DNA from: an uncultured Actinomycetes bacterium | Lineage (GTDB): Bacteria > Actinomycetota > Actinomycetes > S36-B12 | NCBI GenBank assembly: GCA_963755335.1 | Contig: CAVWJW010000008.1 | Coordinates: 1,305,684-1,369,683 of the forward strand | Reading direction: 5' to 3' | DNA: 64,000 nucleotides | Part shown: in pieces, positions 4,134 to 45,289 of the stretch | Layout of the letters: every line of letters starts with the position of its first letter | Numbering within the stretch: the first letter of the stretch is position 1 | Notes under the pieces: model-generated | Databases searched by the model: none | Seen by the model: the letters and a program-made list of their open reading frames with translations, nothing else | What the model was told of the DNA's origin: nothing | Program-made: the position numbers and the translations under genes

Positions 4134-5836
4134 TCAGCCGGCGGTGCCGGCGTCGTGGCCCTCGAGGACCAGCCCGTAGGCGACGGCCCATCGATGGTCG
4201 AGGGTCCCCGCGACTCTCGCCCGCCCGACCGTGACGTCGCGCAGGGTCGGTGCCAGGGCCTCGAGCAGCTCGTCATCGCCGGCCGGCCCACCGGTCACGA
4301 CGACCTGGCTGGGCCGCGCAGACGGGTCCACAGCAGCGAGGAGCCGGGTGAGGTTGTCGGCGAACACCCACCGCTTCAGGGACAGGCGCAGCGATCGCCA
4401 TTCGGCCAGCGACAGGCTGCGCGAGAACGGCAGGTCGCCGCTCGGCCCCCGCACGACGAGCCAGCCGACGGTGCCATGCGGCGCGGCGGAGTCCAGGAAG
4501 CGTCGCTCGCCGGACTCGTCGGAGACCACGTGCGGAGCGTCCACGCGGCTTGCCGGGCCGCGCTTCACCCACTCCGCGGCGCCACCAGAGATGGCGAGGG
4601 CATGACGGGTTGCGGCGGTCATCAGCTCGCCGCTGCCGGCCGCTGTGGCGCTGCGGCCATGGGAGTCGATGAGGTCGACCGTGCCGCCCCCGAGGTCGAG
4701 CACCCACGCGTCCGCGCTCGCGCCGGGGGTCGTGAGCGAGCCGCGTCGGCTCGCGGTTCCCTCGTCGCTGATCACCTCGACGGCTCCGCTCCACTCGCGG
4801 GCGAACGCGTCCGTGCCCTCCGTGGACCAGCGGTCGGCTGCGAGGGACGACACGACGAGGGACTGCTCGCGCACCGTGCCGGCTCGAAGCCCCGGCAGAT
4901 CGCTGACGTCGGTGAGGTCCACCAGCCACAGGTCGTCGACCCGCTCGTGCGCGCCCCCAGGTGCGCGCAGCGACCGAACCGCCGGGAGGGTCAGCTGCAG
5001 GAGGATAGACCGGGCCGACGGCAGGTCGACCTCGCGGTCGTCCCGCAGCAGCACGCTGCCGCGGTCGGCGACGACCGCGCCCTCCGGCGCCGCCGACTGG
5101 CGAAGCCGCCCGATCACCGCGTCACGGTGCCCGCGGGTAACGGCCGCCGCAGACACGGCATGACGCTGCTCGTCGAGGGCCAGCTCCAGGGCGTGCACCA
5201 GCCAGAGCGGGTCGGCGAGCGTCGTGACGAGCTGCCCCGACCCGGCGACCTCCAGCGCGATGAGGTCGCAGGCGAGGGCCTGCGAGGGGTCGACGCAGTC
5301 GGCCACCGGCAGGGATCGCTCGAGGCGGGCAGCCACCAGGGCCGCCTCGTCCCCGGCCAGCAGCACGCCGGCGATGTCGCTGCGACGTGACTGCCAGGCG
5401 ACGATCGCGGCTGTCGTGGCCCGGAACCCCAGTGGATCCTCGGCGACGAGCACCAGCGGTCCGGCGCCGACCGTGGCGGGATCCGAATCGACCCGAACCG
5501 GGCGGCCGACGCCGCTGCCGGATCCTGCCGGGGTCGAGGCGCCGGTGGACAGGACCGTCAGACGACCTAGGTCGGCGGGGGCCTCAGGGACGTCGATCCG
5601 ACCGGTGTGCACGGGCCGCTGCGGGGTGACGAACACCGTCTCGATCTCGAGCGTTCCTCGTCTGGCCGCCCGCGCCAGCAGTGCGGCCGCCGCTCGCGCC
5701 GGACTCTGCCGAGCCCTTCCGGCCTCGAGTGGGAGCCCGTTCGGTCGACGACGACATGGGGAGGTGACGCCGAGACGTCGGCGACGACGACCTCGGTGGT
5801 CGAGTTCCCGATGTCGACACCGGCGACGAGCTTCAC
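4134..5836 (-). CDS. Diol/glycerol dehydratase reactivase, large (ATPase) subunit, 2 frame breaks
   Basis: N-terminus MKLVAGVDIGNSTTEVVVA matches the DdrA/PduG-type start (xIAGIDIGNSSTEV). The long C-terminal ORF 4134..5636 has LDLGGGTVDLID and VVVTGGPAGDDEL actin-fold ATPase motifs. GTG 5836 overlaps the upstream stop. Shifts near 5745 and 5700. Confidence 0.8.
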
Positions 5837-6189
5837 GCCAGCAGGCCGCGCGCCAGGTACGCCTGGGCTGCCTCCCGCACCAGTGCGGCGTTCAGCGGAG
5901 CGTCCCGCGCATCGAGGTCGCGCGCGATCTGCTCGAGCTGCGCGCCCGTGGACCGACGCGGGCGGAGTGCCTCGTAGATGGCCAGCACGAGGTCGTCAGG
6001 CAGGACGGACAGTTCCGCTGCGCGCCGGAAGTTCGCCGCCAGCTGCGGGTTGCCGTGGCTGGCCGCCACCTCTGCCTGGTGCTCGAGGGTCGACGGGTCG
6101 ATGCGGATGTCGTCCACGGCGACATCGCCACCGCGTACGGCGTCGAGCGTGATGTCGTCGACGGATCGACCGGACTTCGCGCGGGTCAC
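5833..6189 (-). CDS. B12-dependent diol/glycerol dehydratase small (gamma) subunit
   Basis: VTRAKSGRSVDDITLDAVRGGDVAVDDIRIDPSTLEHQAEVAASHGNPQLAANFRRAAELSVLPDDLVLAIYEALRPRRST aligns by eye with the PduE/PddC core (LDDLTLENV...MRITPETL...NFERAAEL...PDDRILEIYNALRPYRST). GTGA overlap with the beta stop at 6186. Confidence 0.8.
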   Translation of the reverse strand: MTRAKSGRSVDDITLDAVRGGDVAVDDIRIDPSTLEHQAEVAASHGNPQLAANFRRAAELSVLPDDLVLAIYEALRPRRSTGAQLEQIARDLDARDAPLNAALVREAAQAYLARGLLA

Positions 6190-8439
6190 GATCGCACCAC
6201 CTCCATCTCCTCCGGTCCCGCAGTCGGGTCGCACCACTGCCGTTCGATCGCCACCAGCGACACGACGGTCGTGTGGTACCGGGCCTCGATGGCCTCGTCG
6301 GAGTAGGGATTGCGCTCCGGCTCGGGCGTGGCCCCCTTCGCATGCCGACCTGCGTTGACACCGAGCTGGCGATAGGACTCCCGGCTCAGGCTCGGCGCGA
6401 CGGAGTACAGCTCGAGGTTCGCCAGCGGCGAGAGGTCGCGTCGGTGGATCAGGGCAGTGCCCTTGGCCTGCAGGCCGACGCCGATGCCGGAGCCCGAGAG
6501 GCGGGCGGCCGTCAGGCCGATGAGGCCGAGATCGATCGTGTCGTTGATGCGGACCACGCGGCCGACGCAGCCTTCCTCCTCTAGGCCGGCGAGCAGCTCG
6601 TCGAGTGCGTCGTCGACGGTGAGACCCGCTCAGGGTCTGCCAGATCGCCCGACCGGCCGCGGGGGAGACACCGATGACGACGTCACGGGGGTCGTCCCGG
6701 CGTTCGGCGGGACCGGTCGCCCTCAGGGTGCTGGAGGCGTGCTCCTGCTGCTGGGCGCGAAGGTCGTCGACGGATCGCTGCTGACGGATGGCGTCGATCT
6801 CCCGCTGCCGCTGCGGCGTCGGCTCGTAGCCGGTGCCGGGGCCGGAGTAGTCGTTCGGATCCGTGACGAGGGACAGGATGTCCATCTCCTCGTTGAAGAT
6901 CGCCGCAGTCTGGAGATAGTCGCCGTGCACGCGGGCGTGCAGCATCTGCAGCATCCGCTCGGCCTCGACCTCGTAGCCGGCCTCGTCGAGGGCCCGGATG
7001 ACGTCGATCATGGTGATGTTGGTGTCGCGGATCAGGCGGGACGCCGACAACGGAGTCATCAGATCGGCGTCAGGGACGTCCTTCGAGCCCGCCGCGTCGA
7101 CCGCCTGCGCCGCCCAGGCATCGGTGAAGTCGCCGAGACCGAGGATGCGGTACACGTCGCGTACCGCGGCGACGGCCCGTTCGCGCAGTGCGGCAACGTG
7201 CGGTTCGGCCGCTGTGCGCAGTCCGGCATCGACTCCCCAGTCGCGTTGCATGGCCAGGAAGTCGTCGATGTCCTCGGAGTTCCACTGGCTGGGCCCGAAC
7301 ATGTTGTCGTAGCGCTGGATGGAGCCGAAGCCGCTGCAGATGAAGTCGGAGCCGCCGATGAAGATCGGGTGCGTGCGTGACGTGCGCCGCACGTCGGACT
7401 CGCTCATCAGGGCGTCGTTGCCGGTGCAGGCCTCGAGGTTGCGCACCATCACCATGAGGTTCTCGGCCATCAGGCTGCGCACGCCACCGGGCACGGCGCC
7501 GGCGACAGACGCGGAGTCGATCCCGCCGTTCTGGACGCCCTGCGAGCCGATCGCCCGGGCGAGGGCGACGCAGCGGGACTCGAGGTAGAACATCGAGCAG
7601 CCTTCGGCGCTGCCCATCAGGGCCTCCGCGCCCCCGCCTGACGTCACGCGCATCTTGATGCCCCGGCTGGCATACGCCGAGGTCAGGAAGGCCTTCGACC
7701 ATGGGGTGTCGTCGCCGTCGATGAAGATCTGCTCGGTGCCGTACAGGGACACCGTCTCGGCGTACGACACGAGGCCGCGCATGCCCATCTCGAGCTCGAG
7801 GGCCTCCTCGACCGAGCACTGGACGAGGATCCCTGGCGAACCGACGGCCGCGCCGATGCTGACGGCGATGGCATTGGACGGAGCATCGCCGAGGACGGGA
7901 ACGGTCGTCTCGATCTCCCGGAAGCCGAAGGCGGCCGCGGTCGCGGCGTCCGCGGCCAGCAGCAGTGGGTCATCGGACCTGTTCGTCACATGGGCCTGGT
8001 TGCTCGGCGTGCGTCGGGCCCGGCACTTGGTCATCGCGAGGGTGAGCTCGGCCGGCCGCAGCAGGGTGAGGACGCAGGCGAGCTTGGCCGGCGTCATGCC
8101 GCTGGCCAGCCGCACGATCTCGGATCGTGGGACGCCCGGATCCACGATCATGCGGGCGAAGGCGAGGTCCGGGACGCCCATGGCCTCGTCGGCCACCGTG
8201 AGGTCGAGGCCGTGAGCGGCGATGAACGCGTCCAGGAGGTCGAAGTCCGCCGCCGCGCGCGAATCCATCTCCGTGACGCGGCCGTCGGTGATGACCAGCG
8301 AGGGTGCGGGATCCGCGGGGGAGGCGAACGCCATCAGTCCGAGTGCGGCGTCCTCGACGGCGAAGCCGTCGAGGTTCACGCGCTGCTCGTCCATGAAACG
8401 GAAGCGGCCGATCGGCCGCCGACCATCGCCCTCGCTCAT
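6186..8439 (-). CDS. B12-dependent diol/glycerol dehydratase, large (alpha) and medium (beta) subunits in one reading frame, 1 frame break
   Basis: Alpha part: FMDEQRVNLDGFAVED...VQCSVEEALELEMGMRG...SRGIKMRVTSGGG...FYLESRC...GNDALMSESD...QRDWGVDAGL. It runs without a stop into the beta motifs DVVIGVSPA...TLSG. After a shift near 6624 it continues ...RVVRINDTIDLGLIGLTAARLSGSGIGVGLQAKGTALIHRRDLSPLANLELYSVAP (6186..6557 frame). Confidence 0.8.
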
Positions 8440-8870
8440 GCGTCACGCTCCGTCTCGAAGGCAGCCCGTGCGGCCTCGGCGGCTGAACGGTCCTGGTTGG
8501 CCGAGCCACCGCTGACACCGACGCCGCCGACGACACGGTCACCGTCCCACAGCGGCAGCCCGCCGGCGAACGCGATGTAGCGGCCGGAATCGGCGGAGTT
8601 CATGCCGGCGAGCTCGGCACCGGGGGAGACCAGCGCCGTGAGCTCGTGCGTCGCGGACCTGTGCGCCACCGCCGTGAAGCCCTTGTCGCGGGCGAGGACC
8701 GGACCGGCGATCTCTGCTCCGTCCATGCGCTGGAACGCGATCAGGTGCCCGCCCCCGTCGACCACCGCCACGGAGACGAGGGCGCCGGCGGACGCGGCGC
8801 TGTTCAGTGCCGCCGCGCACATGCGTTGCGCCAGGGCCAGATCCATCTCGAAACGAGTCACCCGCGCCAT
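8436..8870 (-). CDS. DUF336 / GlcG / PduO-C-terminal-like (haem-degrading fold) protein
   Basis: 144 aa with VSVAVVDGGGHLIAFQRMDGA...ARDKGFTAVA...GGLPLWDGDRVVGGVGVSGG, typical of DUF336. ATGA overlap with the dehydratase start. Confidence 0.75.
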   Translation of the reverse strand: MARVTRFEMDLALAQRMCAAALNSAASAGALVSVAVVDGGGHLIAFQRMDGAEIAGPVLARDKGFTAVAHRSATHELTALVSPGAELAGMNSADSGRYIAFAGGLPLWDGDRVVGGVGVSGGSANQDRSAAEAARAAFETERDA

Positions 8871-9877
8871 GCTGCTGCGACCTTCCGCATCTGTTCATGC
8901 ATGCCGTTCATGGGTTGGACGGCTCCGAGCACGCTCTTCGGCACCTTGCACACGACTGTGTAGTTCGTGTCGACGACATTGGCGATCGGGGTGAGGGCCG
9001 CCTGCGACACGAGCTGGTAGGCGTCGATGATCGTCTGTCCGGTCAGCTCGGAGACCCACAGGACCATCTGCTGGTGCGCGATGCGGAAGGCGTCCTCGAG
9101 CGGGCGCGCCGATCCCGTCGTCATGACGAAGTCGTCGCTCTCGATGCGCGGCCAGGGAGTGGGGTGTCCGTGCACGATGTCGAGGACCACCGTGCTGTCC
9201 ATGGCGCACTCCACCGCCACGCCGCATGTCTCGCCCTCCCCCTGCCGGGCATGGCCGTCGCCCAGGCTGAACATCGCTCCGTCGACGTTGACACCCAGGT
9301 AGCAGGTGACCCCTACGCGCATCTCCGGCGTGTCCATGTTCCCGCCCCAGTCGCCGGGGGCCAGCGAGGAGCGCACTTCGCCGAGGGCGGGCGCCACACC
9401 GACGGTTCCGTGCATCGGATCGAGGGGGAGCGCGGCCGTGAAGGGAGTGTCCGCGGCCATGTAGCGGACCAGGGCCTCGGCCCGGTCGATCTCGTAGATC
9501 CAGGTGCGTTCCAGCAGTGCGCCGTGCAGCATCGCCGTCGTAGGTGTGGCCGTCAGCGACCCGAAGAACGGCACGGTGCTGCTGACACCCCACGCCTCGC
9601 GGGGCTCGATGGACACGAAGTGGACGGCGAGGGTGTCACCGGGTTGTGCGCCCTCGACGTAGAAGGGGCCGGACTGGGGGTTGAGCAGGCGCGGGTCGCA
9701 GACCTGGCTGGCGAGGTCGGACGTGCTGCGCACGCGGCCGCCGAAGCAGTCCATCGTCCACGTCGACAGGACCGTCCCGGGGCGGACGGACGCGACGGGG
9801 GGCACCCCGCCGAACGTGTAGGTGTAGGTGGTCGGATCAGCGTCGGCGTCGGGCTCCCAGCGAAGCTCCTCGGGCAC
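8858..9877 (-). CDS. Acetamidase/formamidase (FmdA_AmdA) family amidohydrolase
   Basis: LNPQSGPFYVEGAQPGDTLAVHFVSIEP...GDWGGNMDTPEM...GAMFSLGDGHARQGEGETCGVAVE are family hallmarks. Preferred start is GTG 9877, preceded by GAGGAGG. ORF 8858..9937 extends slightly further upstream. Confidence 0.8.
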   Translation of the reverse strand: MPEELRWEPDADADPTTYTYTFGGVPPVASVRPGTVLSTWTMDCFGGRVRSTSDLASQVCDPRLLNPQSGPFYVEGAQPGDTLAVHFVSIEPREAWGVSSTVPFFGSLTATPTTAMLHGALLERTWIYEIDRAEALVRYMAADTPFTAALPLDPMHGTVGVAPALGEVRSSLAPGDWGGNMDTPEMRVGVTCYLGVNVDGAMFSLGDGHARQGEGETCGVAVECAMDSTVVLDIVHGHPTPWPRIESDDFVMTTGSARPLEDAFRIAHQQMVLWVSELTGQTIIDAYQLVSQAALTPIANVVDTNYTVVCKVPKSVLGAVQPMNGMHEQMRKVAAAWRG

Positions 9878-9906
9878 GGTTCCTCCTCGCGAACGGTGGG
9901 GAAAGT

Positions 9907-9944
9907 CTGAGGGGTGCACGCCCGTCGGGCAATGCACCCCTCAG
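9907..9944 (-). other. Long perfect inverted repeat (RNA hairpin / attenuator candidate) between permease and formamidase genes
   Basis: CTGAGGGGTGCA (9907-9918) and TGCACCCCTCAG (9933-9944) are perfect 12-bp arms. The spacer holds a nested palindrome GCCCGTCGGGC (9920-9930). No U-tract. Confidence 0.4.
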
Positions 9945-9960
9945 CGAGTGTTTCAGCGGG

Positions 9961-11575
9961 TCAGCCCCGGCTGTGCGCTTCCTCGATCGTCGTCCGGCCG
10001 ATCTCGGCGTAGATCTCGGGGCGCTTCGCCTTCAGGTAGAGCGCGTACACGACGCCGATGAGGAACAGGCCGATGACGTAGTACGGCATCCACTGGAAGA
10101 CGAGGCTGTCGGCGGCCAGCCCGGCGGCGAAGCTGCGGTTGGACCACAGCAGGTAGAGGGCGTAGATCATGCCCGCGGCGCCGACGATCGGGGCGACGAG
10201 CGTCATGAGGAAGTTGCCCTTGTTCACCTTCTTGACCCAGAAGTACCAGATGACCGCGAAGGACGTGATCGTCTGGACGATGAGCACCATCGCCGTTCCG
10301 ATGAGCGCCAGGATGCCGTAGACGTTGACGTACGGAATCAGGTCAGGCGTGGCCTGCGGAACCCCGTTCGCGTCGGGCACGTACACGTTGGTGAACAGCA
10401 GGAACAGCACGCACAGCAGGAGCGTGATGCCGCTCTGCACGAACGACGCGATCGCCGGCGACCCGTGCTTGACGTTGACGTGGCCCAGGGTGTTGCGGAC
10501 CGAGGAGGCCACGCTCTCGCGTCCCATCGCGTAGAGGTACCGCGAGGCTGCGTTGTGGAAGGCCATCGCACAGGCGAACGAGCCGATCACGACGAGCAGC
10601 TTGTAGACGTTCTCGGCGAGGCCGCCGAGGTTCGCGTTGACGAGGTTGAGCCACAGGTCGACGGGCGAGGCTCCGGCGGAGACCTCGACCGAGGTCTTGG
10701 CGCCGTTGCCGACGACGACCATCCACGACATGAAGGTGTAGAACAGGCCGAGGCCGATGACTGCGATCATGGTGGCGAGGGGGACGTTGCGCTTCGGGTT
10801 CCTCGACTCCTCGCCGTAGACGGCGGTCGTCTCGTAGCCGACCCAGGACCAGAAGGCGAAGAAGATTCCGATGGCGGAGGCGCCTGCCGCGACGCTCGTG
10901 CCGAAGGCTCCTTCAGGCAGCGAGCTGAAGGCGGCTATCGGGTTCACCGTGTCGGCCGCCATGAAGCCGTCCGGACCGCCCTTGATCAGCACGGAGATGC
11001 CGAGGGAGGCGAGCAGCAGCACCTCGCACACCAGGGTCACGCTCAGCACGCTGGCCGCGAGGGAGATGGAGAAGTAGGTGAGGAGCGCGATCACGGCGAT
11101 GCCGAGGATGGCGATCCAGATCCAGTTGATGGTCAGGCCCATCGGGAGGAAGACGTACTGCGAGGCGAAGTAGGCGAACCCGCCGATCAGCGAGCCCTCG
11201 AAGATGATGTAGGCGACGGCGGCGAGCATGCCCGGAGGCCATGCCCCAGACCTGGCCGAGGCCCTGCGAGATGAAGCCGTAGAAGGCGCCGGCCGTGGTG
11301 ACGTAACGGGCCATGGCCACGAAGCCCAGCGTGAAGATCGTGAGGACGATCGTGGCGAACAGGAAGCCGCCCGAGACGGCGATGCCGTTGCCGTAGCCGA
11401 TCGCGATGGGGACGTTGAAGCTCATGGCGGTGATCGGCGCCGCGTTCGCGACCGCCATGAACAGGACGCCGACCAGACCGACTGCCCCGACCTTGAGGCG
11501 GGCAGCCTCCTTGGTGTTCAGCTGGTGATCACCGGGCAGCGCATGCGGCCCGTCCTCGAGGTTGCTCGTGCTCAT
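9961..11575 (-). CDS. APC-superfamily amino acid/amine permease, 1 frame break
   Basis: Twelve-helix-type hydrophobic profile. N-terminus MSTSNLEDGPHALPGD...GAVGLVGVLFMAVANAAPITAM (10913..11575 frame) continues in 9961..11229 (MLAAVAYIIFEGSLIGGF...). Extra G near 11231. RBS GGGAGGA lies before ATG 11575. Confidence 0.8.
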
Positions 11576-11624
11576 GAACCGTCCTCCCGTGGCCGACCCG
11601 CGTGATGCAGGTCACGATTCGCGG

Positions 11625-11653
11625 AGTATGGCGCCATCCTTGGACCGTTACAA
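11625..11653 (-). promoter_or_regulatory. Candidate sigma-A-type promoter of the permease/dehydratase operon
   Basis: On the minus strand: TTGTAA, 17 nt, CATACT, about 50 nt upstream of ATG 11575. Located in the only AT-enriched stretch of the locus. Confidence 0.3.
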
Positions 11654-11670
11654 GCATTTCCACGTATTCC

Positions 11671-11817
11671 GGTCTGGAATTATCCCGATGGAAACACCGA
11701 AACGGTCTGTTAACCGTCCGGCAACACGCCAGAGACCACACCGATACGTTGAACATCCGGATTCGTTCACGAGGGGGCGAGGACTTTAGTCCTCGTTTAC
11801 GGTATTGATTTGGTCTG
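11671..11817. promoter_or_regulatory. Three GGTCTG boxes (candidate GntR/HutC operator half-sites) in the divergent BMC control region
   Basis: GGTCTGGAATT (11671), ACGGTCTGTTAACCGT (11702-11717, arms ACGGT/ACCGT) and TTGGTCTGCCAA (11811-11822, arms TTGG/CCAA). The third box lies in the spacer of the plus-strand promoter. TGGTCT is the half-site I recall for the HutC-subfamily regulator DasR. Confidence 0.35.
11778..11795. promoter_or_regulatory. 18-bp near-perfect palindrome upstream of the BMC operon promoter
   Basis: CGAGGACT-TT-AGTCCTCG with 8-bp perfect arms, ending 10 bp upstream of the candidate -35. Confidence 0.35.
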
Positions 11818-11832
11818 CCAATTCGGTATGGT
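11805..11832 (+). promoter_or_regulatory. Candidate promoter of the BMC enzyme/shell operon; implies a leaderless mRNA
   Basis: TTGATT (11805-11810), 16 nt, TATGGT (11827-11832). The in-frame GTG at 11839 lies 7 nt after the -10, and GTG 11833 abuts it. No Shine-Dalgarno sequence is present. Confidence 0.3.
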
Positions 11833-13153
11833 GTGCGGGTGACCGACCAGGCCGAAGCGGCGCCGGAGTACGACTACGGGCTGTTCACGTTCTCCTCCAA
11901 GGCCGAGGTTCTCGACAAGGCGAAGGAGTACTGGAACCCGGGCAAGACCCAGTTCTGGATCGACTCCGGGGTGCCCCTGGTGATCGACCGGCGCGAGGGC
12001 TACTTCCTCTGGGACATGTCCGGCAAGCGGCTCATCGACCTGCATCTCAACGGCGGCACCTACAACATCGGCCATCGCAACCCTGAGGTCGTCCAGGCGC
12101 TCACCGTGGCGATGCAGCACTTCGACATCGGCAACCACCACTTCCCGGCGCTGGCCCGCACCGCGCTCGCCGAGGCGCTGATCGCGTCAGCACCGGCCGG
12201 CCTCTCGAAGGTGATGTACGGCAGCGGCGGCGGCGAGGCGATCGACATCGCCCTGAAGACGGCGCGCAACGCCACGCAGAAGCGCAAGATCGTCTCGATC
12301 ATCAAGGCCTATCACGGTCACACGGGCCTCGCCGTCGGCGCCGGCGACGAGCGGTTCTCCAAGTTCTTCCTCGCCGACCAGCCGGAGGACTTCCCGCAGG
12401 TTCCCTTCAACGACCTCGAGGCGATGGAGGACGCGCTGCGCGGGCGCGATGTCGCCGCCGTGATCATGGAGACGATCCCTGCGACGTTCGGCTTCCCGCT
12501 GCCTGAGCCCGGCTACCTGCGGGCCGTCAAGGCACTGTGCGAGCAGTACGACGCGCTGTACATCGCCGACGAGGTGCAGACCGGACTCATGCGCACGGGC
12601 GAGCTGTGGGGCATCACCAAGGAGGGCATCGAGCCCGACATCATGGTGACCGGCAAGGGCATCTCCGGCGGCATGTACCCGATCGCCTGCGTGCTGGCCA
12701 GTGACGCCGCCGCTGGGTGGCTCACCGAGGACGGCTTCGCGCACATGTCGACGTTCGGCGGGGCGGAGCTCGGCTGCATCGCGGCGATGAAGGCCCTGGA
12801 GATCTGCTCGCGCACCGAGACCCGCTCGATGGTCCACTACATCGCCGACCTGATCGGCTCGGGCCTGCGCTCGATCCAGGCCGACGTACCCCGACTGGTT
12901 CATCGGCATCCGCCAGAACGGCGTCATCTTCGGACTGGAGTTCAACGACCCGCAGGGCGCCAAGTACGTGATGCGGCGGCTGTACGAGAACGGCGTGTGG
13001 GCGATCTTCTCCACCCTCGACCCGCGGGTGCTGCAGTTCAAGCCGGGGATCCTGCTCAAGCCGGAGGTCGCCGAGGAGGTCCTCGACCGCGTGGAGGTCG
13101 CCATCGGCCTGGCCTACCGCGACGTGACGGGTGCCGGGGGTGGTCGTCGATGA
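11833..13153 (+). CDS. Class-III aminotransferase-fold PLP enzyme (putative 1-amino-2-propanol O-phosphate phospho-lyase), 1 frame break
   Basis: LWDMSGKRLIDLHLNGGTYNIGHRNPEV...GSGGGEAIDIALKTAR...YHGHTG...ADEVQTGLMRTGELWG...DIMVTGKGISGG (PLP-Lys context). The true C-terminus YPDWFIGIRQNGVIFGLEFNDPQGAKYVMRRLYENGVWAIFS...GGGRR is in the 12968..13153 frame (shift near 12886). The real start may be GTG 11839. Confidence 0.8.
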
Positions 13154-14710
13154 CCGCGCTGCTGGCGGACATACCACTGGAGCCGGCCGGCGTGCCGCGC
13201 GGTCGGGCCATGGTCGAACGCGCCGAGTGGGCCGCCCGGGCGTTCGCCTCCTACGACATCGAGACCGTGCGTCGCATCGCCAAGGCCGCGGCAGAGGCGG
13301 GCGAGAAGCATGCGCGGACGTTCGCCGAGGACGCGGTCGCCGAGACCGGCTTCGGCGTCGCGGAGCACAAGGTCCTCAAGAACGTGGCCTGCTCCATCGG
13401 CATCTGGAACACCTACGGCGGCAATGACTACGTGACACCCGTCGTCCACGACGACCAGCGGGTAGTCGAGATCCCGCGACCGGCGGGAGTCGTCTTCGCC
13501 CTCACGCCGTCGACCAACCCCGTGGCCACCACCTACTTCAAGATCATGCTCGCCCTCCTGACGCGCAACGCGATCATCATCAGCCCGCATCCCTATGCCA
13601 AGAAGGTCTGCGCCGCGGCAGCACGGGTCATGGGCGACGCCGCCATCGAGGCGGGCGCACCCGACGGGTGCATCCAGGTCGTCGAGGAGCCTTCCGTCCC
13701 GCTGATCGATGCGGTGATGTCGGATCCCCGCGTCGATGTCATCGTCGCGACGGGTGGGACCCCGATGGTCCGGGCGGCCTATCGAAGCGGCAACCCCGCG
13801 CTCGGCGTCGGTCCGGGCAACGTCCCCGTCCTGGTCGATGCCACGGCCGACCTGGCGATGGCGGCGCGTCACCTGGTCGCGAGCAAGGCGTTCGACAACT
13901 CGATCCTGTGCACCAACGAGTCCGTCGTGATCGTCGAGGAGAAGGTGGCCGCACCGTTCGCCGCCGCCCTTCGGCGTGAGGGCGCCTACGTCCTCGAGGG
14001 TGAGGAGATCGATGCCGTCCGGGGGGTGATCTTCGAGGGAGACCACTTCAACGTCGCTTGGGTCGGCCGCTCGGCCCGCCAGATCGCCGAGGCCGCCGAG
14101 GTCAAGGTCCCGGCGAACACGCGGATCCTCGTGGCGCCGTTCCCGATCGTGGTGCCGGAGGAGATGCTCGCCCACGAGAAGCTCTGCCCGGTTCTCGGCC
14201 TGGTGACGGTGCCGAGTGCATCGCGAGGGATCGACGCCGCCAGGGCCGTCCTGCGCATCACCGGCGCCGGGCACAGCGCGGCGATCCACAGTGCGGATCC
14301 GGGCACGGTCATGGCCTTCGCGGCCGCCGTACGGGTGCTTCGCGTGTCCGTGAACGTCGGCAACAGCCTGGGCGGCGCGGGCATCGAGACGAACCTGGCC
14401 CCGTCGATGACCATCGGCACCGGGTTCTTCGGCGGCTCGTCGCTGGGCGAGAATCTCGAGCCCAAGCACCTCGTCGACATGACCCGTATCGCGTACAACG
14501 CGGACACCCGTGTGCCCATGCCGAGCTTCGCCGACCTGACGCCCTGGGCGGCGCCCACGGGGGTCGTCCCGGCGTACCCGTTCGCGTCGAACCTGGCCGA
14601 CGCGCCGCGCCTGGTGCCCCCCACCCCGACCCGATGACGGGACCGGCGAGCTCCGCGAGGAGATCCGCCGACTCGTCGTCGAGGAACTACGACAGATCAT
14701 CAAGGGCTGA
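13150..14710 (+). CDS. CoA-acylating aldehyde dehydrogenase (EutE/PduP-like) with C-terminal encapsulation-peptide-like helix, 1 frame break
   Basis: ATG 13150 overlaps the upstream stop (ATGA). ALTPSTNPVAT...VATGGTPMV...GVGPGNVP...AFDNSILCTNES (catalytic Cys). After the C-run at 14617-14622 the frame shifts, and the gene continues PTPDDGTGELREEIRRLVVEELRQIIKG to the stop at 14708-14710. Confidence 0.8.
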
Positions 14711-14714
14711 CACC

Positions 14715-15317
14715 GTGGCTGAACTGCGCTCCTTCATCTTCCTGGACCGGCTCCAGCCGCAGACCATGTGCTACCTCGGCACCTGGGTCCGTGGCGCACT
14801 GCCGCGGGCGGACTACGCCGCCCAGATCATCGAGGTGGCGCCGGGGCTCGACATCGAGCCGCTCACCGACGTGGCGCTCAAGCATGCCCACGTGGGGGCC
14901 GGGATCCTCTTCGTCGAGCGGCAGTTCGGGTACCTCGAGATCCACGGCCCGACGAGTGCGGTGCGCAGTGCGGCGGACGCCGCCCTCGAGCAGCTGGGAG
15001 CCACCGCGCACAGCGCGATGCGCCCGCAGATCCTCGCCTCACGCATCGTGCCGAAGATCGACCGTCAGCACGCGTTCCTCATCAACCGGAACAAGATCGG
15101 GTCGATGGCGCTGCCGGGGGAGTCGATGTTCGTCCTCGAGATGCAGCCGGCCAGCTACGCCATCCTCGCCGCGAACGAGGCGGAGAAGGCCGCTCGCGTC
15201 AAGGTCGTCGACTACCGCATGGTCGGTGCCACTGGTCGCGTGTACCTGACCGGGACCGAGTCCGAGGTGCGGGCCGCGGCCGAGGCCGCCGAGGCCGCGC
15301 TCCAGGCGGTGGCGTGA
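14715..15317 (+). CDS. Two-domain BMC shell protein (BMC-T-like, EutL/PduB-type permuted fold), paralogue 1
   Basis: GTG 14715. About 200 aa with two similar halves (IIEVAPGLDIEPLTDVALKHA...[16 protein letters not shown] and [42 protein letters not shown]). The second half resembles the EutL C-terminal domain by eye. Sits between cargo and shell genes. Confidence 0.6.
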   Translation: MAELRSFIFLDRLQPQTMCYLGTWVRGALPRADYAAQIIEVAPGLDIEPLTDVALKHAHVGAGILFVERQFGYLEIHGPTSAVRSAADAALEQLGATAHSAMRPQILASRIVPKIDRQHAFLINRNKIGSMALPGESMFVLEMQPASYAILAANEAEKAARVKVVDYRMVGATGRVYLTGTESEVRAAAEAAEAALQAVA

Positions 15318-15662
15318 TGACGACTAGCGGTCCTGTCTCGAACGACCTGCTGCGGGAGGTGATCCGCGACGTCGTCCGCGAGGTCATCCGGGAGGTGGTG
15401 GCCGAGGAGATCGCCGCGGCGTCCCTCGCCCGCACGGTCAGCCCAGGAGCCCCCACGCCGGCGAGCGGCGGTCGCCTCGGGCAGCCCGGCAGGTTCCGTG
15501 TCAGGCGCGACCCGGCTCGAGCGCGGGGCGCTCACCGAGCGGCATGTCCGCGCCGCCGGTCCGTCCGCCACCATCACCATCACGCGGGCCGTCGTGGTCA
15601 CGCCGCTCGCCAAGGAGCGCGCCAAGGCCATGGGCGTCGAGATCATCCGGATCGAGGAGTAG
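15317..15662 (+). CDS. Small (~114 aa) BMC-locus protein with N-terminal encapsulation-peptide-like amphipathic helix, 1 frame break
   Basis: ATG 15317 (TGATG overlap). N-terminus MTTSGPVSNDLLREVIRDVVREVIREVVAEEIAAAS, then a P/G/A-rich linker. The C-terminus lies in another frame (shift about 15485-15500): ...LERGALTERHVRAAGPSATITITRAVVVTPLAKERAKAMGVEIIRIEE, stop at 15660-15662. Confidence 0.55.
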
Positions 15663-15670
15663 GAGTCACC

Positions 15671-15928
15671 ATGCTGCGTGCACGAGTGGTCGGAAACGTG
15701 TGGTCGACCCGCAAGGTGTCGTCGATCCCCAACGGCGCCTTCCTGGAGGTCGAGGTGGAGCCGGGCGGCTCCCGCCTCATCGCGTTCGACGTGCTCGGAT
15801 CCGGCATCGGCGAGGCGGTGCTCGTGTCCACGGGCTCGGTCGCCGCGTCCTGGTTCCCCGGCGAGGCACCGCCCATCGACGCCCTCATCATCGGCTCCAT
15901 CGACGAGAGCGGCAGCCCGACTGCGTGA
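15671..15928 (+). CDS. BMC-P pentameric vertex protein (EutN/CcmL family)
   Basis: [29 protein letters not shown]...[23 protein letters not shown]. 85 aa. RBS AGGAG at 15661-15665. Confidence 0.85.
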
Positions 15929-15977
15929 CCGCAGCGGCCACGAACATCCACGAGCTCATCAACAGAAGGGAAGCACC

Positions 15978-16259
15978 ATGTCCAACAACGCGATCGGCAT
16001 GATCGAGACCAGGGGATACGTCGCGGCGCTCGCCGCGGCCGACGCCATGGTCAAGGCGGCCAACGTGACCATCGTCAGTCGCGAGCAGGTCGGCGCCGGG
16101 CTCGTCGCGGTGACCATCTCGGGCGACGTCGGCGCCGTGAAGGCCGCCACCGAGGCGGGCTCCGAGGCCGCCAGCCAGGTCGGCGAGCTGGTCAGCGTCC
16201 ACGTCATCCCGCGCCCGCACTCCGAGCTCGCCAAGAACTTCAGCGTCAGCGCACAGTGA
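15978..16259 (+). CDS. BMC-H hexameric shell protein (single PF00936-type domain)
   Basis: [61 protein letters not shown]...VHVIPRPH is the canonical BMC-H sequence. 93 aa. Confidence 0.92.
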
Positions 16260-16915
16260 CCGCGAGCGGCCTCACCGCTTCCGCGTCGCCTGAGCTCCGG
16301 GTCTACCTGCAGCTGGAGGACCTCCAGCCGCAGTTCGCCGCCTACCTCGGCACGCCGACGCGGGCACGCGGCTACCCGCCCTACGCGGGCCAGCACGCGC
16401 TCATCGTCGAGGTCGCGCCGGGCCTGGCGATCGAACGGGTGACCGACCTCGCCCTGCGATCCGTGCCGGACGTGGTGCCGGGGATCCTGTTCGTCGAGCG
16501 CCAGTTCGGCGTCCTCGAAGTGCATGCCGACGACCTCGACCAGGTGCAGGCGGCCGGGCGGGCGATCCTCGACGGCATCCATGCCGAGGCCGACCATCAG
16601 CTGCGCCCGCGGATCCTCTTCCACGACGTCGTCGAGGACATCACCGACCAGCATGCCGTGATCATCAACCGCAACCGGCAGGCCTCCATGCTGCTTCCCG
16701 GGCAGAGCCTGCTCGTGTTCGAGATGACGCCAGCCCTCTTCGCTGCCATGGCGGCGAACGAGGCCGAGAAGGCGGCCCCCGACATCACGCTCGTGGATGT
16801 CCAGATGATCGGGGCTGCCGGCCGGGTCTACATCGGTGGCACGACGGAGTCCGTCGAGATCGCCCGCCAGGCCATCGGCGCGGCTTTGGCTGCGGTCATC
16901 GGTCGCGACCAGTAA
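16256..16915 (+). CDS. Two-domain BMC shell protein (BMC-T-like), paralogue 2
   Basis: GTGA overlap with BMC-H. Alignable over its full length with 14715..15317 (shared blocks [20 protein letters not shown], LRPx[19 protein letters not shown]). Confidence 0.6.
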
Positions 16916-16944
16916 CGTCCCGCACGAGTCGAAGGGGAGGGCCC

Positions 16945-17925
16945 GTGGACGATCCGGTGTCGTCGTTCGAGCAGTTCGCCCACGCGGCCCTGCCCGTGTA
17001 CGGCCTCGACCCGTCCGCAGAGGTCACCCTGCTGAACGTGTCGGAGAACGGCACCTTCCGCGTCGATGACCCCTCCCAGGGCAGATCGGTGCTCCGGGTG
17101 CATCGCACCGGGTACCACGCCAAGCAGGCCATCCGCTCCGAGCTGGCGTGGATCTCGGCGCTTCGCGCGGACGGCGTCGTCCGCACGCCGGCCTACCTGC
17201 CCACGCTCGGCGGGGACGACGTCGCGGCGGCGCGGCTGCCCGACGGGCAGGAGCGCTACGTCGTGCGGTTCGCCTGGGCGGACGGCATCGAGCCCACGGA
17301 GGACCGACTTGCGCAGGACTTCGAGCAGCTCGGGGCCATCACCGCCCGTCTGCACGAGCATGCGCGCCAGTGGCATCGGCCGACGGAGTTCACCAGGTTC
17401 GTCTGGGACTTCGACACCTCGTTGGGCGAGCGGGGCCACTGGGGGCGTTGGCAGGACGGCCTCGCCGTCGGGCCGCAGGAGGAGGAGATCCTCGGCAGGT
17501 GCGCCGACCTGCTGAGGAGTCGGCTGGCCCTCTACGGCACCGGACCGGATCGGTTCGGCCTCGTGCATGCCGACATGCGGCTGGCCAACCTCCTCGTGAA
17601 GGGAGACGACGTCACCGTCATCGACTTCGACGACTGCGGACTGTCGTGGTTCATGTACGACCTCGGCTCGTCACTGTCCTTCATCGAGCATGAGCCCTAC
17701 GTTCCCGAGCTGATCGACGCGTGGGTGCGCGGCTACCGAACGGTCACGACGCTGCCCGCCGACGACGAGGCGGAGCTGCCGACGTTCGTCATGCTCCGAC
17801 GGCTTCTGCTGGTGGCGTGGATCGGCTCGCACGCCGCCACCGAGACGGCGCAGTCCATGGGCGAGGAGTTCACGGCCACCAGCTGCACACTCGCCGAGGA
17901 GTACCTCAGCACAATGTCCCGGTGA
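16945..17925 (+). CDS. APH-fold (aminoglycoside phosphotransferase-like) small-molecule kinase; predicted 1-amino-2-propanol kinase
   Basis: Brenner/APH motifs [13 protein letters not shown] and VIDFDDCG. 326 aa. Position next to the shell genes and the SDR matches what I recall of the M. smegmatis RMM locus. Confidence 0.75.
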
Positions 17926-17936
17926 GAGGGGAAGGC

Positions 17937-18719
17937 ATGTTCACATCCATCGCGGGCCGCTCGGTGGTCGTCACCGGCGGGACCAAGGGCATCGGCAAGG
18001 GCATCGCGCGCGTGATGGCGAAGGCGGGCGCGCACGTCCTGGTGACCGGGCGCAACCGCGAGGACGCCGAGAGGGCCGTGCGCGAACTCGACGAGCTCGG
18101 CGCCGGCAAGGTGGCCTACTTCCTCGGGGATGTGGCCGACGCAGCCGACTGCCGGGCGATGGCGCAGGCGGCCGTCGACGCGTTCGGCGGTATCGACATC
18201 CTGTGCGCGAACGCGGGCATCTTCCCCGACGCCAAGCTGGTCACCATGACCGAGGCCGACATGGACCAGGTGTTCGACACGAACATCAAGGGCACCTTGC
18301 TGTCGGTCCAGGCATGCATCCCCGCGCTCACGGCCTCCGGGCGCGGGCGGGTGATCCTGACGTCTTCGATCACCGGACCGATCACCGGCTATCCCGGCTG
18401 GGCGCACTACGGCGCGAGCAAGGCGGCGCAGCTGGGCTTCATGCGGACCGCGGCCATCGAGCTGGCGCCCCGGGGAATCACCGTCAACGCCGTGCTGCCC
18501 GGCAACGTGGCCACGGAAGGCCTGGCCGAGCTCGGCGAGGAGTACCGCACGGCCATGGAGATGTCGATACCGCAGCGACGGCTCGGCGAGGTCGAGGACA
18601 TCGGGAACGCCGCGCTGTTCTTCGCCACTGACGAGGCCGCGTACATCACCGGGCAGGCCCTCGCGGTGGACGGCGGCCAGGTCCTGCCGGAGTCGCTGGC
18701 CGCGCTGGAGGCGATGTAG
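17937..18719 (+). CDS. Short-chain dehydrogenase/reductase; predicted aminoacetone / 1-amino-2-propanol oxidoreductase
   Basis: [15 protein letters not shown] (cofactor site), NAG, SSITG...YGASKAA (catalytic Tyr-Lys). 260 aa. Internal Met at 17937 of ORF 17721..18719. Confidence 0.75.
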
Positions 18720-18722
18720 CCC

Positions 18723-19540
18723 ATGGCCGATGCAGGGCTGGACGATCTCGGGGCCATCGGCCCCACCGGCGAGGAGGTGCGTCGGCGGATCGTCGGGATG
18801 GTCGAGCGCGGCACGCTTGCAGCCGGGCCAGAAGCTGGGTGCCGAGCGGGAGCTCGCCGTGAAGCTCGGGCGTCAGCCGGTCCACCCTTCGCCAGGCGCT
18901 CGCCTCCCTCGAGGAGGCCGGGATCGTCCGGCGTGTTCCGGGCCGCGGCGGCGGCACGTTCATCGCGTCCGCGAAGGTCGAGCGCGACCTGTCCCGCATC
19001 GTCGGGATCCCGATGCTCCTGCGCGACCAGGGCTTCACCGCCGGCTCCCGCGTCGTCAGCGTCAGCGTCACCACGGCCGGTCCCGATGCGGCCGAGGCGC
19101 TGGGCATCGCGGAGGCCGACTTCGTCGTGGACCTGGTGCGCATCCGGCTGGCCGACGGCGTCCCGATCTCGCTCGAGCACGCGGTGTTCCCGGCCGAGCT
19201 CGTACCGGGGCTTCCCGAGCGGGGTCTCGGCGGCTCGATCTACGAACTGTGCGACCGCGAGTACGGCCTTCGCCCGGACGAGGCGATCGAGCACATCGAG
19301 GTCGTCGCCGCATCACCCGACGAGGCGTCGATCCTGGCGATCGACGCCGGTGCGCCGCTGCTGTCCGTCACTCGCACCACCCGCACGGCCGAGGGGATCG
19401 CCTTCGAGTACTCGCACGACCTGTTCCGTGCCGACCGCACGCGCATCAGCGTCAAGGTGAAGGGCTCGCCGACCACCGAGAAGGCACGGCTGCGCGGTCG
19501 GGTCATGGAGCTCGTTCCGCCGCACGACATCGATCAGTAG
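18723..19540 (+). CDS. GntR/HutC-family transcriptional regulator (wHTH + UTRA domain), 2 frame breaks
   Basis: LQPGQKLGAERELAVKLG and EEAGIVRRVPGRGGGTFIA (GntR wHTH), followed by the UTRA-like region ...DLVRIRLADGVPISLEHAVFPAEL...LLSVTRTTRTAEGIAFEYSHDLFRADRTRI. Shifts near 18815 and 18880. Confidence 0.75.
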
Positions 19541-19558
19541 TCAGGGCACGCTGGATAC

Positions 19559-20983
19559 ATGAACGCCACGCCCCGCGTCTGCGCGGTCCGGGATGACGCC
19601 CTGGGGGAGCACGATGCCGTCGGCCTCGTGAAGGCGGTCCACGCCCGCCAGGTCACGGCGGCCGAGCTGGTGGCGGCGGCCATCGACAGGGCCCGAAGCG
19701 TCGACCCGGCACTTCATGCCGTGGTCGCCTGGGCGGCGGACCCGACGTCGGCCACGGGGCCCTTCGCGGGGGTGCCGACCTTCATCAAGGACAACGAGGC
19801 GGTGGCCGGCCTCCCCTCGCGCTCGGGTTCGCGAGCGACCTCGGCCCGTCCGGTGGCGCAGTCCTCCGCCTTCGTCGAGCAGTGGCACGACTTGGGGCTG
19901 AGCATCCTGGGCACCTCAGCGATGCCGGAGTTCGGGCTGACGGCGTCGACCGAGTCTCTGCTGTCCGGTCCGACGCGCAATCCCTGGGACCTCACCCGGT
20001 CACCGGGCGGCTCGTCCGGAGGGTCCGCGGCGCTCGTGGCAGCAGGCGCGGTGCCGATCGCCCATGCGAACGACGGAGGCGGTTCCATCCGCATCCCCGC
20101 AGCATGCTGCGGGCTCGTCGGCCTTAAGCCCTCGCGCGGCCGGCTGCTCCTGCCCCAGGGACATGAGCGGCTCCCCGTCGCGATCGCCACGCAAGGACTC
20201 CTGACGCGCAGCGTCCGCGACACGGCGCGGTTCTATGGCGAGGCGGAGAGGCAGGCCCAGGCCGGCTCCGCACTGCCGCCTGTCGGCGAGGTCGTCGGGG
20301 CGAGCCGCCGACGCCTGCGGATCGCCTTCGCTCCTGAAGGCCCGCCCGGGCTGCCCGTGGATCCCGACGTGCAGGCGGCGGTCGTCGGTGCCGCCCGCCT
20401 CCTTGATGCGATGGGGCATCATGTCGAGCAGGTGGCCTATCCGTTCGGTGAGCAGCTCGGTCGCGACTTCCTGCGCTATTGGGCTGCCCTGGCCTTCGCA
20501 TTGCAGTTCGGCGGGACTCCGGTGCACGGCCCCGACTTCGACGCTCGCCAGCTGGAGCCGTTCACGCTGGGCATGAGCAGGTTCTTCCGCTCCGTCGCGC
20601 CGCGCATGCCGGCGAGCATCCGGCGGCTTCGGCGGTTCGTGGACGAGTACCCGATCGCACTGGGTAAGGCCGACGTGCTTCTCACCCCTGTGACGTCGCA
20701 GGTGGCACCCATCATCGGGTTCCTCGCGCCGGACCTGGACCTCACCACTCACCTTGTGCGCCTGCTGCGCTACGCCTCCTTCACGATGGTGCAGAACGTC
20801 TCCGGCGCTCCGGCGATCTCGCTGCCGCTCGGCAGGAGTACCGACGGCCTGCCGATCGGCGTGCAGGCAGCCGCGCGACGAGGTGATGACGCGATGCTCA
20901 TCGAGCTCGCGTTCGAGCTGGAGGCGGCCGCCTCGTGGGGGAGGGCGCTCAGCGACGAAGGGCTGGCGCCATCGTCACCTTGA
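19559..20983 (+). CDS. Amidase-signature (AS) family amidohydrolase
   Basis: GVPTFIKDN...GGSSGGSAALVAAGAVPIAHANDGGGSIRIPAACCGLVGLKPSRGR is the canonical AS signature with the Ser-cisSer-Lys context. 474 aa, intact. Confidence 0.85.
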   Translation: MNATPRVCAVRDDALGEHDAVGLVKAVHARQVTAAELVAAAIDRARSVDPALHAVVAWAADPTSATGPFAGVPTFIKDNEAVAGLPSRSGSRATSARPVAQSSAFVEQWHDLGLSILGTSAMPEFGLTASTESLLSGPTRNPWDLTRSPGGSSGGSAALVAAGAVPIAHANDGGGSIRIPAACCGLVGLKPSRGRLLLPQGHERLPVAIATQGLLTRSVRDTARFYGEAERQAQAGSALPPVGEVVGASRRRLRIAFAPEGPPGLPVDPDVQAAVVGAARLLDAMGHHVEQVAYPFGEQLGRDFLRYWAALAFALQFGGTPVHGPDFDARQLEPFTLGMSRFFRSVAPRMPASIRRLRRFVDEYPIALGKADVLLTPVTSQVAPIIGFLAPDLDLTTHLVRLLRYASFTMVQNVSGAPAISLPLGRSTDGLPIGVQAAARRGDDAMLIELAFELEAAASWGRALSDEGLAPSSP

Positions 20984-36575: not shown

Positions 36576-36682
36576 GGTCAAGAGTTCCAGCGCTCAGCTC
36601 CGGCTTGCTGGACGGCAACCCTCCACCGCGGTGGGGTGCTCCGGATGAAGACCTGGCCCGGACTTTCGGGCAAGCGCGGGTC
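36576..36682 (+). promoter_or_regulatory. SAM-IV riboswitch aptamer
   Basis: GGUCAAGAGUUCCAGCG...CCGGCUUGCUGGACGGCAACCCUCCACCGCGGUGGGGUGCUCCGGAUGAAGACCUGGC...GGCAAGCGCGGGUC follows the SAM-IV consensus as I remember it. It lies upstream of metY-metX, the usual actinobacterial context. Confidence 0.75.

Positions 36683-43180: not shown

Positions 43181-45289
<2,109 letters not shown>

Follow-up and report, generated by a model that had tools for sequence, protein, structure and literature searches.

A stretch of 64,000 nucleotides from an uncultured Actinomycetes bacterium (hereafter, the window) holds, at positions 4134-20983, a complete bacterial microcompartment (BMC) operon of the RMM/AAUM type on the plus strand and, divergent from it, a minus-strand operon that encodes a B12-dependent dehydratase, as found by Pfam scans of the long open reading frames (ORFs). 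The reading favored here, with a probability of roughly 0.6, is that of an RMM1/AAUM-type metabolosome with the dehydratase as a co-regulated, functionally coupled pathway partner, which probably turns a vicinal diol into an aldehyde for the aldehyde dehydrogenase (ALDH) of the compartment. The orthology of the shell proteins and pathway enzymes to those of Mycobacterium smegmatis and the recurrence of the dehydratase beside the same enzymes in two phyla carry this reading.

The two operons could function in the following manner: The short-chain dehydrogenase/reductase (SDR) would interconvert aminoacetone and (S)-1-amino-2-propanol, and the APH-fold kinase would phosphorylate the amino alcohol. 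The aminotransferase-fold enzyme may then eliminate phosphate and ammonia to yield propanal. Inside the shell, the ALDH, which carries a C-terminal encapsulation-peptide-like helix, would oxidize propanal to propionyl-CoA; the system is presumably controlled by the GntR/HutC repressor. The dehydratase would convert a vicinal diol, with 1,2-propanediol as the default candidate, into an aldehyde that is consumed by the same ALDH. In the simplest model, dehydratase and phospho-lyase would both converge on propanal, which corresponds to the bifunctional organelle mentioned as an alternative by Axen 2014.

The microcompartment operon

A preliminary description of this DNA, made from the sequence and its ORFs, had listed the genes of both operons, and all of them were found where it had placed them. 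The features are as follows, with the single-base insertions that are treated in the last section given in brackets:

4134-5836, minus strand: diol-dehydratase reactivase alpha-like protein, ~565 aa (PF08841, PF18427; insertions 5697 and 5749)
5833-6189, minus strand: small (gamma) subunit of the B12 dehydratase, 118 aa (PF02287)
6186-8439, minus strand: fused large and medium (alpha-beta) subunits of the B12 dehydratase, 750 aa (PF02286, PF02288; insertion 6624)
8436-8870, minus strand: HbpS-like/DUF336 protein, 144 aa (PF03928, 1.9e-31)
8858-9877 (alternative start 9937), minus strand: acetamidase/formamidase-family (FmdA) hydrolase, 339 aa by orthologous call (PF03069)
9961-11575, minus strand: APC-family amino acid/amine permease, 537 aa, heading the minus operon (PF13520, PF00324; insertion 11231)
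11576-11832, no strand: divergent control region of 257 bp with a lower G+C content (sequence, repeats, alignment)
11833-13153, plus strand: class-III aminotransferase-fold enzyme, 439 aa (PF00202; insertion 12885)
13150-14710, plus strand: CoA-acylating ALDH, 519 aa (PF00171; insertion 14629)
14715-15317, plus strand: BMC-T1, double-stacking type, MSM0275 orthologue (PF00936; 5L39, 9e-96)
15317-15662, plus strand: 114-aa protein with encapsulation-peptide-like N-terminal helix (clean copy at L091:10603-10947; insertion 15457)
15671-15928, plus strand: BMC-P pentamer, MSM0273 orthologue (PF03319; 5L37, 2.3e-34)
15978-16259, plus strand: BMC-H hexamer, MSM0272 orthologue (PF00936; 5L38, 5e-42)
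16256-16915, plus strand: BMC-T2, MSM0271 orthologue (5SUH, 1.6e-95; PF27545 on orthologues)
16945-17925, plus strand: APH-fold kinase (PF01636; 6EF6, 1.5e-93)
17937-18719, plus strand: SDR (PF00106, PF13561; 6CI8/6CI9, ~1e-100)
18723-19540, plus strand: GntR/HutC-family regulator, HTH and UTRA domains (PF07702 at 19013-19540; insertions ~18800 and ~18877)
19559-20983, plus strand: amidase-signature enzyme, 474 aa (PF01425, 2.2e-84)

Genes of the plus operon are separated by 0-29 nt or overlap by 1-4 nt, the exception being a gap of 49 nt between BMC-P and BMC-H; in L091, a metagenome contig nearly identical to the window, the stop of the aminotransferase gene overlaps the start of the ALDH gene. 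The shell is composed of one BMC-H, one BMC-P and two BMC-T proteins, which correspond one to one to the solved M. smegmatis RMM set of MSM0275 (5L39), MSM0271 (5SUH), MSM0272 (5L38) and MSM0273 (5L37). The preliminary description had placed the shell genes in 14715-16915, and PF00936 indeed matches there at 14715-15317 and 15978-16259 and PF03319 at 15671-15928; the Pfam scans of the locus revealed no further ORF of either family. BMC-T2 has no Pfam match in the window scan and owes its identity to the match to 5SUH and to PF27545 on its orthologues.

The kinase and the SDR were matched in a PDB homologue search to 6EF6 and to 6CI8/6CI9, which we take to be the M. smegmatis (S)-1-amino-2-propanol kinase and 1-amino-2-propanol dehydrogenase of Mallette and Kimber. 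The pathway of the M. smegmatis RMM was reportedly proposed by the same authors in 2017 and 2018. As cited in PMC8156839 and in Supplementary Data 2 of Sutter 2021, it leads from aminoacetone via aminopropanol, aminopropanol phosphate and propanal to propionyl-CoA. The aminotransferase-fold enzyme, which is intact in L091 and L092 and has no NCBIfam equivalog, is the proposed aminopropanol-phosphate phospho-lyase of this sequence of reactions. The kinase also matches, weakly, the N-terminal part of the 972-aa NCBIfam 'aminotransferase' model PRK06149; this model presumably represents natural fusions of APH and class-III aminotransferase domains, which would fit a coupling of kinase and phospho-lyase.

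The best NCBIfam matches of the ALDH are of the AdhE N-domain and EutE types, indicating a CoA-acylating enzyme. In clean copies, the protein ends in a Pro-rich linker followed by an encapsulation-peptide-like helix ('..LREEIRRLVVEEL..' / '..GELREEIRRLVVEELRQIIKG'), which, judged by its sequence pattern, is conserved in all 14 loci inspected from Actinomycetota and Proteobacteria. The corresponding region of the window, 14640-14710, is unreadable due to the insertion at 14629. A second helix of this kind is found in the 114-aa protein, which consists of an N-terminal amphipathic helix ('NDLLREVIRDVVREVIREVV'), a Pro/Ala/Gly linker and a C-terminal domain of ~45 aa. Its clean copy matches no Pfam family, it is present in all close and RMM-type loci, and it may be an adaptor or scaffold for cargo that lacks a peptide of its own. 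When the termini were compared, these were the only two such helices; no encapsulation peptide was seen on the termini of dehydratase, reactivase, aminotransferase, kinase or SDR.

The classification as an RMM/AAUM locus in the preliminary description is borne out: in M. smegmatis mc2 155 (MSMEG_0267-0277), the RMM1/AAUM1 genes form the same set in the same order, from the aminotransferase through GntR, with a divergent permease, and the shell proteins, kinase and SDR are orthologous. The RMM1/AAUM1 entry of the Sutter 2021 catalogue likewise has one BMC-H, one BMC-P and two BMC-Tdp proteins. The window has the features by which RMM1 is recognized, namely an aminotransferase-fold gene beside an acylating ALDH, a kinase and an SDR, a GntR regulator and a permease, and, as a sequence pattern, the encapsulation-peptide-like helix on the ALDH. 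Differences from the M. smegmatis locus are that the permease heads a six-gene operon with added FmdA, HbpS-like protein, fused dehydratase and reactivase alpha, that an amidase-signature gene follows GntR, and that none of the alpha/beta hydrolases of the RMM1 description was seen.

The divergent dehydratase operon

The minus operon and the plus operon start, as had been described, from the same 257-bp region. In L091, the permease gene is followed by a gap of 82 bp and then by the genes for FmdA, HbpS-like protein, dehydratase, small subunit and reactivase, which overlap by 4-13 nt. The permease had been counted among the additions of the second arm; this assignment has to be revised, as the permease is a conserved RMM1 component (Axen 2014). 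PF02286 and PF02288 lie in one ORF, and the clean orthologue (P0121/L091) is a single polypeptide of 750 aa. The large-subunit part scores 818 bits against NCBIfam NF011979, with a cut-off of 788; its PDB homologues are 1DIO and 1IWP, and the identity to the Klebsiella enzymes is ~55%, as estimated by eye from the alignment. Upstream, the stop of the HbpS-like gene overlaps the dehydratase start. The HbpS-like gene is conserved in L044, L091 and L095-L099, and FmdA occupies the same position in L091 and L095-L099; the NCBIfam formamidase match of FmdA is far under its cut-off. For the gamma subunit, the matches to the NCBIfam 'diol dehydratase small subunit' are also under the cut-off, and a comparison of N-termini shows no PduE-type extension.

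Intact reactivase orthologues of 564-565 aa are found in L091, L095 and L099. No reactivase beta subunit, that is, no DdrB/PduH-like or second PF02288-like ORF, was found in the window or in the close loci. More widely, actinobacterial loci carry a reactivase alpha without a beta subunit, and proteobacterial loci with the same fused dehydratase show no reactivase within 10 kb (L011-L062, L101-L180).

RMM2, as named by Axen 2014, is RMM1 joined by genes for a diol dehydratase that lie on the opposite strand. The window has this arrangement, with PF02286, PF02288 and PF02287 at 5833-8439 on the minus strand, divergent from the plus operon that starts at 11833. Compared with the four Axen-type RMM2 loci of Mycolicibacterium (L018, L030, L035, L037), it adds FmdA and the HbpS-like protein between permease and dehydratase, and it stems from another actinobacterial order than the Mycobacterium loci of Axen 2014. 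Sutter 2021 redefined RMM2/AAUM2 by gene order, with Proteobacteria and Marinimicrobia as hosts. The same enzyme and shell families occur there as in the window, which is nevertheless not of this type because it has the RMM1 order, shared by L001, L091 and Mycolicibacterium loci of the M. smegmatis type, a G+C content of ~70% and its closest relatives among Actinomycetes. Judged from its sequence, the locus thus is an RMM1/AAUM1 gene order with an Axen-type dehydratase neighbor, a kind that is already catalogued. The preliminary description had likewise called the class catalogued, adding that the dehydratase-bearing form was uncharacterized; in agreement with this, no experimental study of that form was found in the literature. 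Paracoccus yeei TT13 was considered as an RMM2 organism that uses propanediol and rejected, since according to its genome paper the pdu operon is absent and catabolism proceeds via lactate.

The propanediol utilization (PDU) system of Salmonella has in common with the window the B12 dehydratase family (NF011979) and an acylating ALDH with an encapsulation peptide. In contrast to PDU, the dehydratase of the window is alpha-beta fused, its gamma subunit is short, PduD/PduE-type N-terminal extensions and a reactivase beta subunit are absent, the ALDH peptide is C-terminal, and Ser301 and Gln336 of the dehydratase pocket are replaced. PduL, PduQ, PduS/O, a Pdu-type shell set, PTAC and Fe-ADH families were not found in the Pfam scans of the locus, which does not have the make-up of a PDU metabolosome. 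Fused alpha-beta dehydratases were noted before in M. smegmatis, Mesorhizobium loti and Hyphomicrobium (Liu et al. 2010, via PMC7674605 and PMC4777399). They share with the window the joining of large and medium subunits in one polypeptide; the passages on them in PMC7674605 and PMC4777399 describe a 'slightly different' active site and a reactivase that is often missing, treat them as glycerol dehydratases of the dha regulon and make no link to aminopropanol genes or microcompartments.

The control region (11576-11832) contains four GGTCT/AGACC half-sites, compared to 1.5 per kb in the window. A stricter operator pattern has 2 matches versus 0.43 expected, which is weakly above chance, as 6 of 100 shuffles reach 2. 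Just upstream of the aminotransferase start, the block CGGTATTGATTTGGTCTGCCAATTCGGTATGG (CGGTATTGATTTGGTCTGC..ATTCGGTATG) at 11797-11829 is conserved in L091, L095 and L098, and other actinobacterial loci have TTGACA...GGTC...TTTGGTC-like elements ahead of their aminotransferase gene. The block is a candidate promoter or HutC-type operator.

Recurrence and role of the dehydratase

Two surveys addressed the association of the dehydratase with RMM-type loci. From the shell side, a BMC-T alignment was run against one genome per GTDB species, yielding 80 loci with 10-kb flanks, of which 54 have an RMM-type core; the dehydratase was counted in the 38 RMM-type loci whose flanks reach 9 kb or more to either side. 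It is present in 17 of these, 12 of 20 from Actinomycetota and 5 of 18 from Proteobacteria, and occupies at least five different arrangements, some of them inside the shell operon. In L011 it lies divergent and directly beside the aminotransferase gene; in the four Mycolicibacterium/Mycobacterium loci (L018, L030, L035, L037) it follows the permease in the divergent operon; in L012-L017, L025 and L062 it is located on the same strand directly after GntR, with gaps from none to ~110 bp; in L044 it is convergent at the far end. In two loci from Rhodospirillales, it comes after the BMC-T2 stop, behind a Shine-Dalgarno sequence, the gap being 23 bp in L061 and of comparably small size in L042; in both, it closes a ~10-kb string of SDR, kinase, aminotransferase, ALDH and shell genes. 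These same-strand and same-operon placements mean that the argument against a common transcript of dehydratase and RMM genes fails in several lineages. Starting from the dehydratase or the shell side, look-ups of five close relatives gave a layout identical to that of the window, so the expected conservation of the adjacency of the two arms was found; in the look-up from the dehydratase side on long contigs, the genes beyond the reactivase are unrelated.

The survey from the dehydratase side searched metagenome contigs with the clade motif QG[TV]QNGGI, yielding 80 loci of the proteobacterial branch, 22 of which are at least 15 kb long. In 15 of the 22, an SDR (55-65% identity), kinase or aminotransferase of orthologue level lies within 10 kb of the dehydratase, orthology in these metagenome loci being judged from identity levels. 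At least two of the three enzymes occur in 9/22, shell genes are in range in 1/22, and 8/22 combine at least two pathway enzymes with no match to shell or ALDH genes. Shell-less clusters of fused dehydratase, APC permease, SDR, APH kinase and class-III aminotransferase were found in L107, L108, L116, L121, L123, L128, L129 and L142. The order in L107 (9161-18302) is dehydratase, small subunit, isochorismatase-family hydrolase, APC permease and SDR, followed by convergent kinase and aminotransferase genes; the hydrolase sits where the lineage of the window has the FmdA-family hydrolase. As the linkage persists without shell or ALDH genes, the dehydratase is tied to the aminopropanol enzymes as such.

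All seven Ca2+-binding and catalytic residues of the dehydratase are conserved (Gln141, His143, Glu170, Glu221, Gln296, Asp335 and Ser362; K. oxytoca numbering here and below). In the pocket, Ser301 is replaced by Asp and Gln336 by Ala. Every pathway-linked copy has Asp at 301 and Ala at 336 (Asn in Mycolicibacterium), with further changes nearby, whereas Ser301 and Gln336 are retained in KpGDHt of Klebsiella and in the PDU-like loci L078 and L079. In the same scan, all RMM-linked dehydratases are alpha-beta fused, and L078 and L079 are unfused. Asp301 is not a simple by-product of the fusion because other fused clades keep Ser301, as seen in a search of a representative library, which returned mostly fragments and was used for this point only.

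Several observations weigh against the metabolosome with a coupled dehydratase. Both surveys are similarity-ranked rather than unbiased samples, and in 21 of the 38 RMM-type loci no dehydratase is found within 10 kb. The operator-like motifs of the control region are only suggestive of co-regulation. Given the clusters that lack a shell, a coupling between dehydratase and pathway does not need a shared shell. The termini of dehydratase and reactivase have no encapsulation-peptide-like extension, and through the fusion the beta subunit has lost the free N-terminus that serves PduD. The idea of the preliminary description that both arms share one shell is not supported by any encapsulation signal on the dehydratase, whose clade is also present in shell-less pathway clusters; the enzyme may be located inside the shell or outside. 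The missing peptide is not decisive since the aminotransferase, the kinase and the SDR have none either. Finally, the replacements of Ser301 and Gln336 at the C3 end of the pocket question 1,2-propanediol as the substrate. The preliminary description had taken the second arm for another route to the aldehyde of the first, in line with the model of convergence on propanal; such a route is plausible, but 1,2-propanediol is not assured for a fused clade with these pocket residues.

The altered pocket allows a different assignment: the fused Asp301 dehydratase might act on a vicinal diol whose C3 or a more distant carbon bears a polar or cationic group, such as 3-amino-1,2-propanediol, rather than on 1,2-propanediol. 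The permease could take up such a compound, with the co-encoded hydrolase possibly cleaving off an amide beforehand, and the amino-aldehyde formed could be processed in parallel with the aminopropanol pathway. In known enzymes, according to the active-site description in PMC7674605, Ser301 points toward the C3-OH of glycerol, and the invariant Asp301 and the loss of Gln336 in all pathway-linked copies, with the Ca2+-binding and catalytic residues kept, would agree with an amino diol. The same holds for the link to amino-alcohol enzymes, which does not depend on a shell, and for the hydrolase of changing family that recurs in the module. However, such a diol has no established natural source, and Asp301 could instead confer resistance to inactivation by glycerol. 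The canonical enzyme, when engineered to S301A or Q336A by Yamanishi in 2012, reportedly still used 1,2-diols, which also counts against this assignment; it is considered rather unlikely. A broader proposal would make the fused Asp301 dehydratase a dedicated component of amino-alcohol catabolism, either acting on an amino or cationic vicinal diol or serving as a second signature enzyme that feeds the one ALDH, in a module that predates the shell. The existence of shell-less clusters suggests that this module of permease, hydrolase, dehydratase, SDR, kinase and lyase would be separable from the shell; the proposal as a whole is speculative and rather unlikely.

In the literature, the dehydratase is rather seen as an unrelated neighbor, that is, as part of an independent cytosolic diol or glycerol pathway, while the shell handles only amino alcohols. 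Axen 2014 favored a compartment that makes no use of the dehydratase, and Sutter 2021 took a similar view, finding PDU enzymes in only 4 of 32 RMM2 loci. This would be consistent with the opposite strand of the dehydratase genes in the window, the absence of an encapsulation peptide, the surveyed loci that lack the enzyme, and the occurrence of the fused type in genera not known for microcompartments (Mesorhizobium, Hyphomicrobium). A chance neighbor is nevertheless hard to reconcile with a linkage that is seen in two phyla and in so many arrangements, among them same-operon positions after BMC-T2 or GntR and positions after the RMM permease. It also leaves unexplained the AAUM-type enzymes near most of the long metagenome loci that were found from the dehydratase itself, and in the window the dehydratase lies in one operon with the conserved RMM permease, behind a common control region. 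An independent pathway is hence regarded as distinctly unlikely.

A third explanation, published as scenario 2 of Ravcheev 2019 (PMC6620236), holds that the amino-alcohol pathway itself yields 1,2-propanediol as a by-product, formed by reduction of lactaldehyde from transamination and salvaged by the dehydratase. It would account for a linkage to the pathway enzymes that does not depend on shells, but the second SDR activity that it requires is 'not very likely' in the words of its authors (PMC6620236), and the orthology of the kinase to 6EF6 supports the kinase/phospho-lyase route, in which propanal is formed directly. A salvage role is thus very improbable.

The comparative evidence argues that the dehydratase beside RMM loci is a recurrent pathway partner, contrary to its current dismissal as incidental: A specific fused clade with an altered pocket recurs next to or inside operons of aminopropanol genes in two phyla, both where shell genes are present and where they are absent. 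The contribution of the locus as such is one more lineage, uncultured Actinomycetes from peat, freshwater and wood, of a catalogued type of microcompartment. The comparative result provides a testable handle on the substrates of RMM/AAUM compartments, on the use of one shell for two aldehyde-generating enzymes and on the role of fused dehydratases. The arrangement is available in the cultured strains Mycolicibacterium sphagni ATCC 33027 and M. austroafricanum DSM 44191 and in Oricola nitratireducens, and the Kineosporia isolates A_224 and R_H_3 carry the same dehydratase clade, as far as gene presence is concerned.

Reading frames and flanking genes

In 4134-20983, ~11 single-base insertions (5697, 5749, 6624, 9958, 11231, 11577, 12885, 14629, 15457, ~18800 and ~18877) break the frames of reactivase, dehydratase, permease, aminotransferase, ALDH C-terminus, 114-aa protein and GntR, and thereby hide the C-terminal helix of the ALDH and the alpha-beta fusion of the dehydratase in the window as written. 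The same genes are intact and free of the insertions in L001, L091, L092 and L099, metagenome contigs from peat, fen and wood that are 96-97% identical to the window. The shifts in the GntR gene, both +1, were located via orthologues, and the HTH was recovered once the frames were mended. All changes are +1 insertions at a spacing of ~1-1.5 kb, in genes as well as between them and also outside the locus; a neighboring transporter gene (2409-4041) switches frame at least four times. In the comparison with the near-identical contigs, the broken genes have neither stop codons nor deletions. With the insertions removed, the codon differences to L091 are 333 synonymous versus 74 non-synonymous (4.5:1), with 75:6 for the dehydratase and 41:1 for the aminotransferase, so the genes are under purifying selection. 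Because they are missing from such closely related contigs, the insertions are, on sequence grounds, errors or added noise and not signs of decay. A decaying pseudogene array with genuine frameshifts, as ~11 frameshifting insertions within 17 kb might suggest, is barely credible in view of their uniform type and spacing, their presence between genes and in the transporter, their absence from every contig of this similarity, the synonymous excess and the lack of stop codons and deletions. Any ORF-based reading elsewhere in the window should expect broken frames.

The amidase-signature gene, which was absent from the gene list of the preliminary description, starts 18 nt 3' of GntR on the same strand. 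None of the other RMM-type loci examined showed it behind GntR, and look-ups of the exact sequences of the window amidase and SDR returned no matching contig on record. A convergent Zn-dependent alcohol dehydrogenase gene (20949-22139, minus strand) overlaps its 3' end by 35 nt and is not conserved in the other RMM-type loci examined. At the other end, the transporter at 2409-4041 (minus strand) belongs to the Asp-Al_Ex/TrkA_C family and lies on the same strand ~60-90 nt past the reactivase. The same transporter follows the reactivase in L095 (14354-15985), the closest long contig with 88-92% identity, and is not found there in L096-L098; it may be an extension of the minus operon in the sub-lineage of the window and L095. 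The closest named relatives are metagenome-assembled genomes labelled Actinomycetes, Kineosporiaceae and Nanopelagicales.

No cobalamin riboswitch was found near the B12 operon; the sole Rfam match in the window, at 36576-36682 on the plus strand, is to a SAM-IV riboswitch (104.8 bits, gathering score 38). Further genes resemble GyrB/ParE (43181-45289, plus strand) and GyrA/ParC (56162-58333, minus strand); the latter ORF is short for a full-length subunit, possibly due to another insertion.

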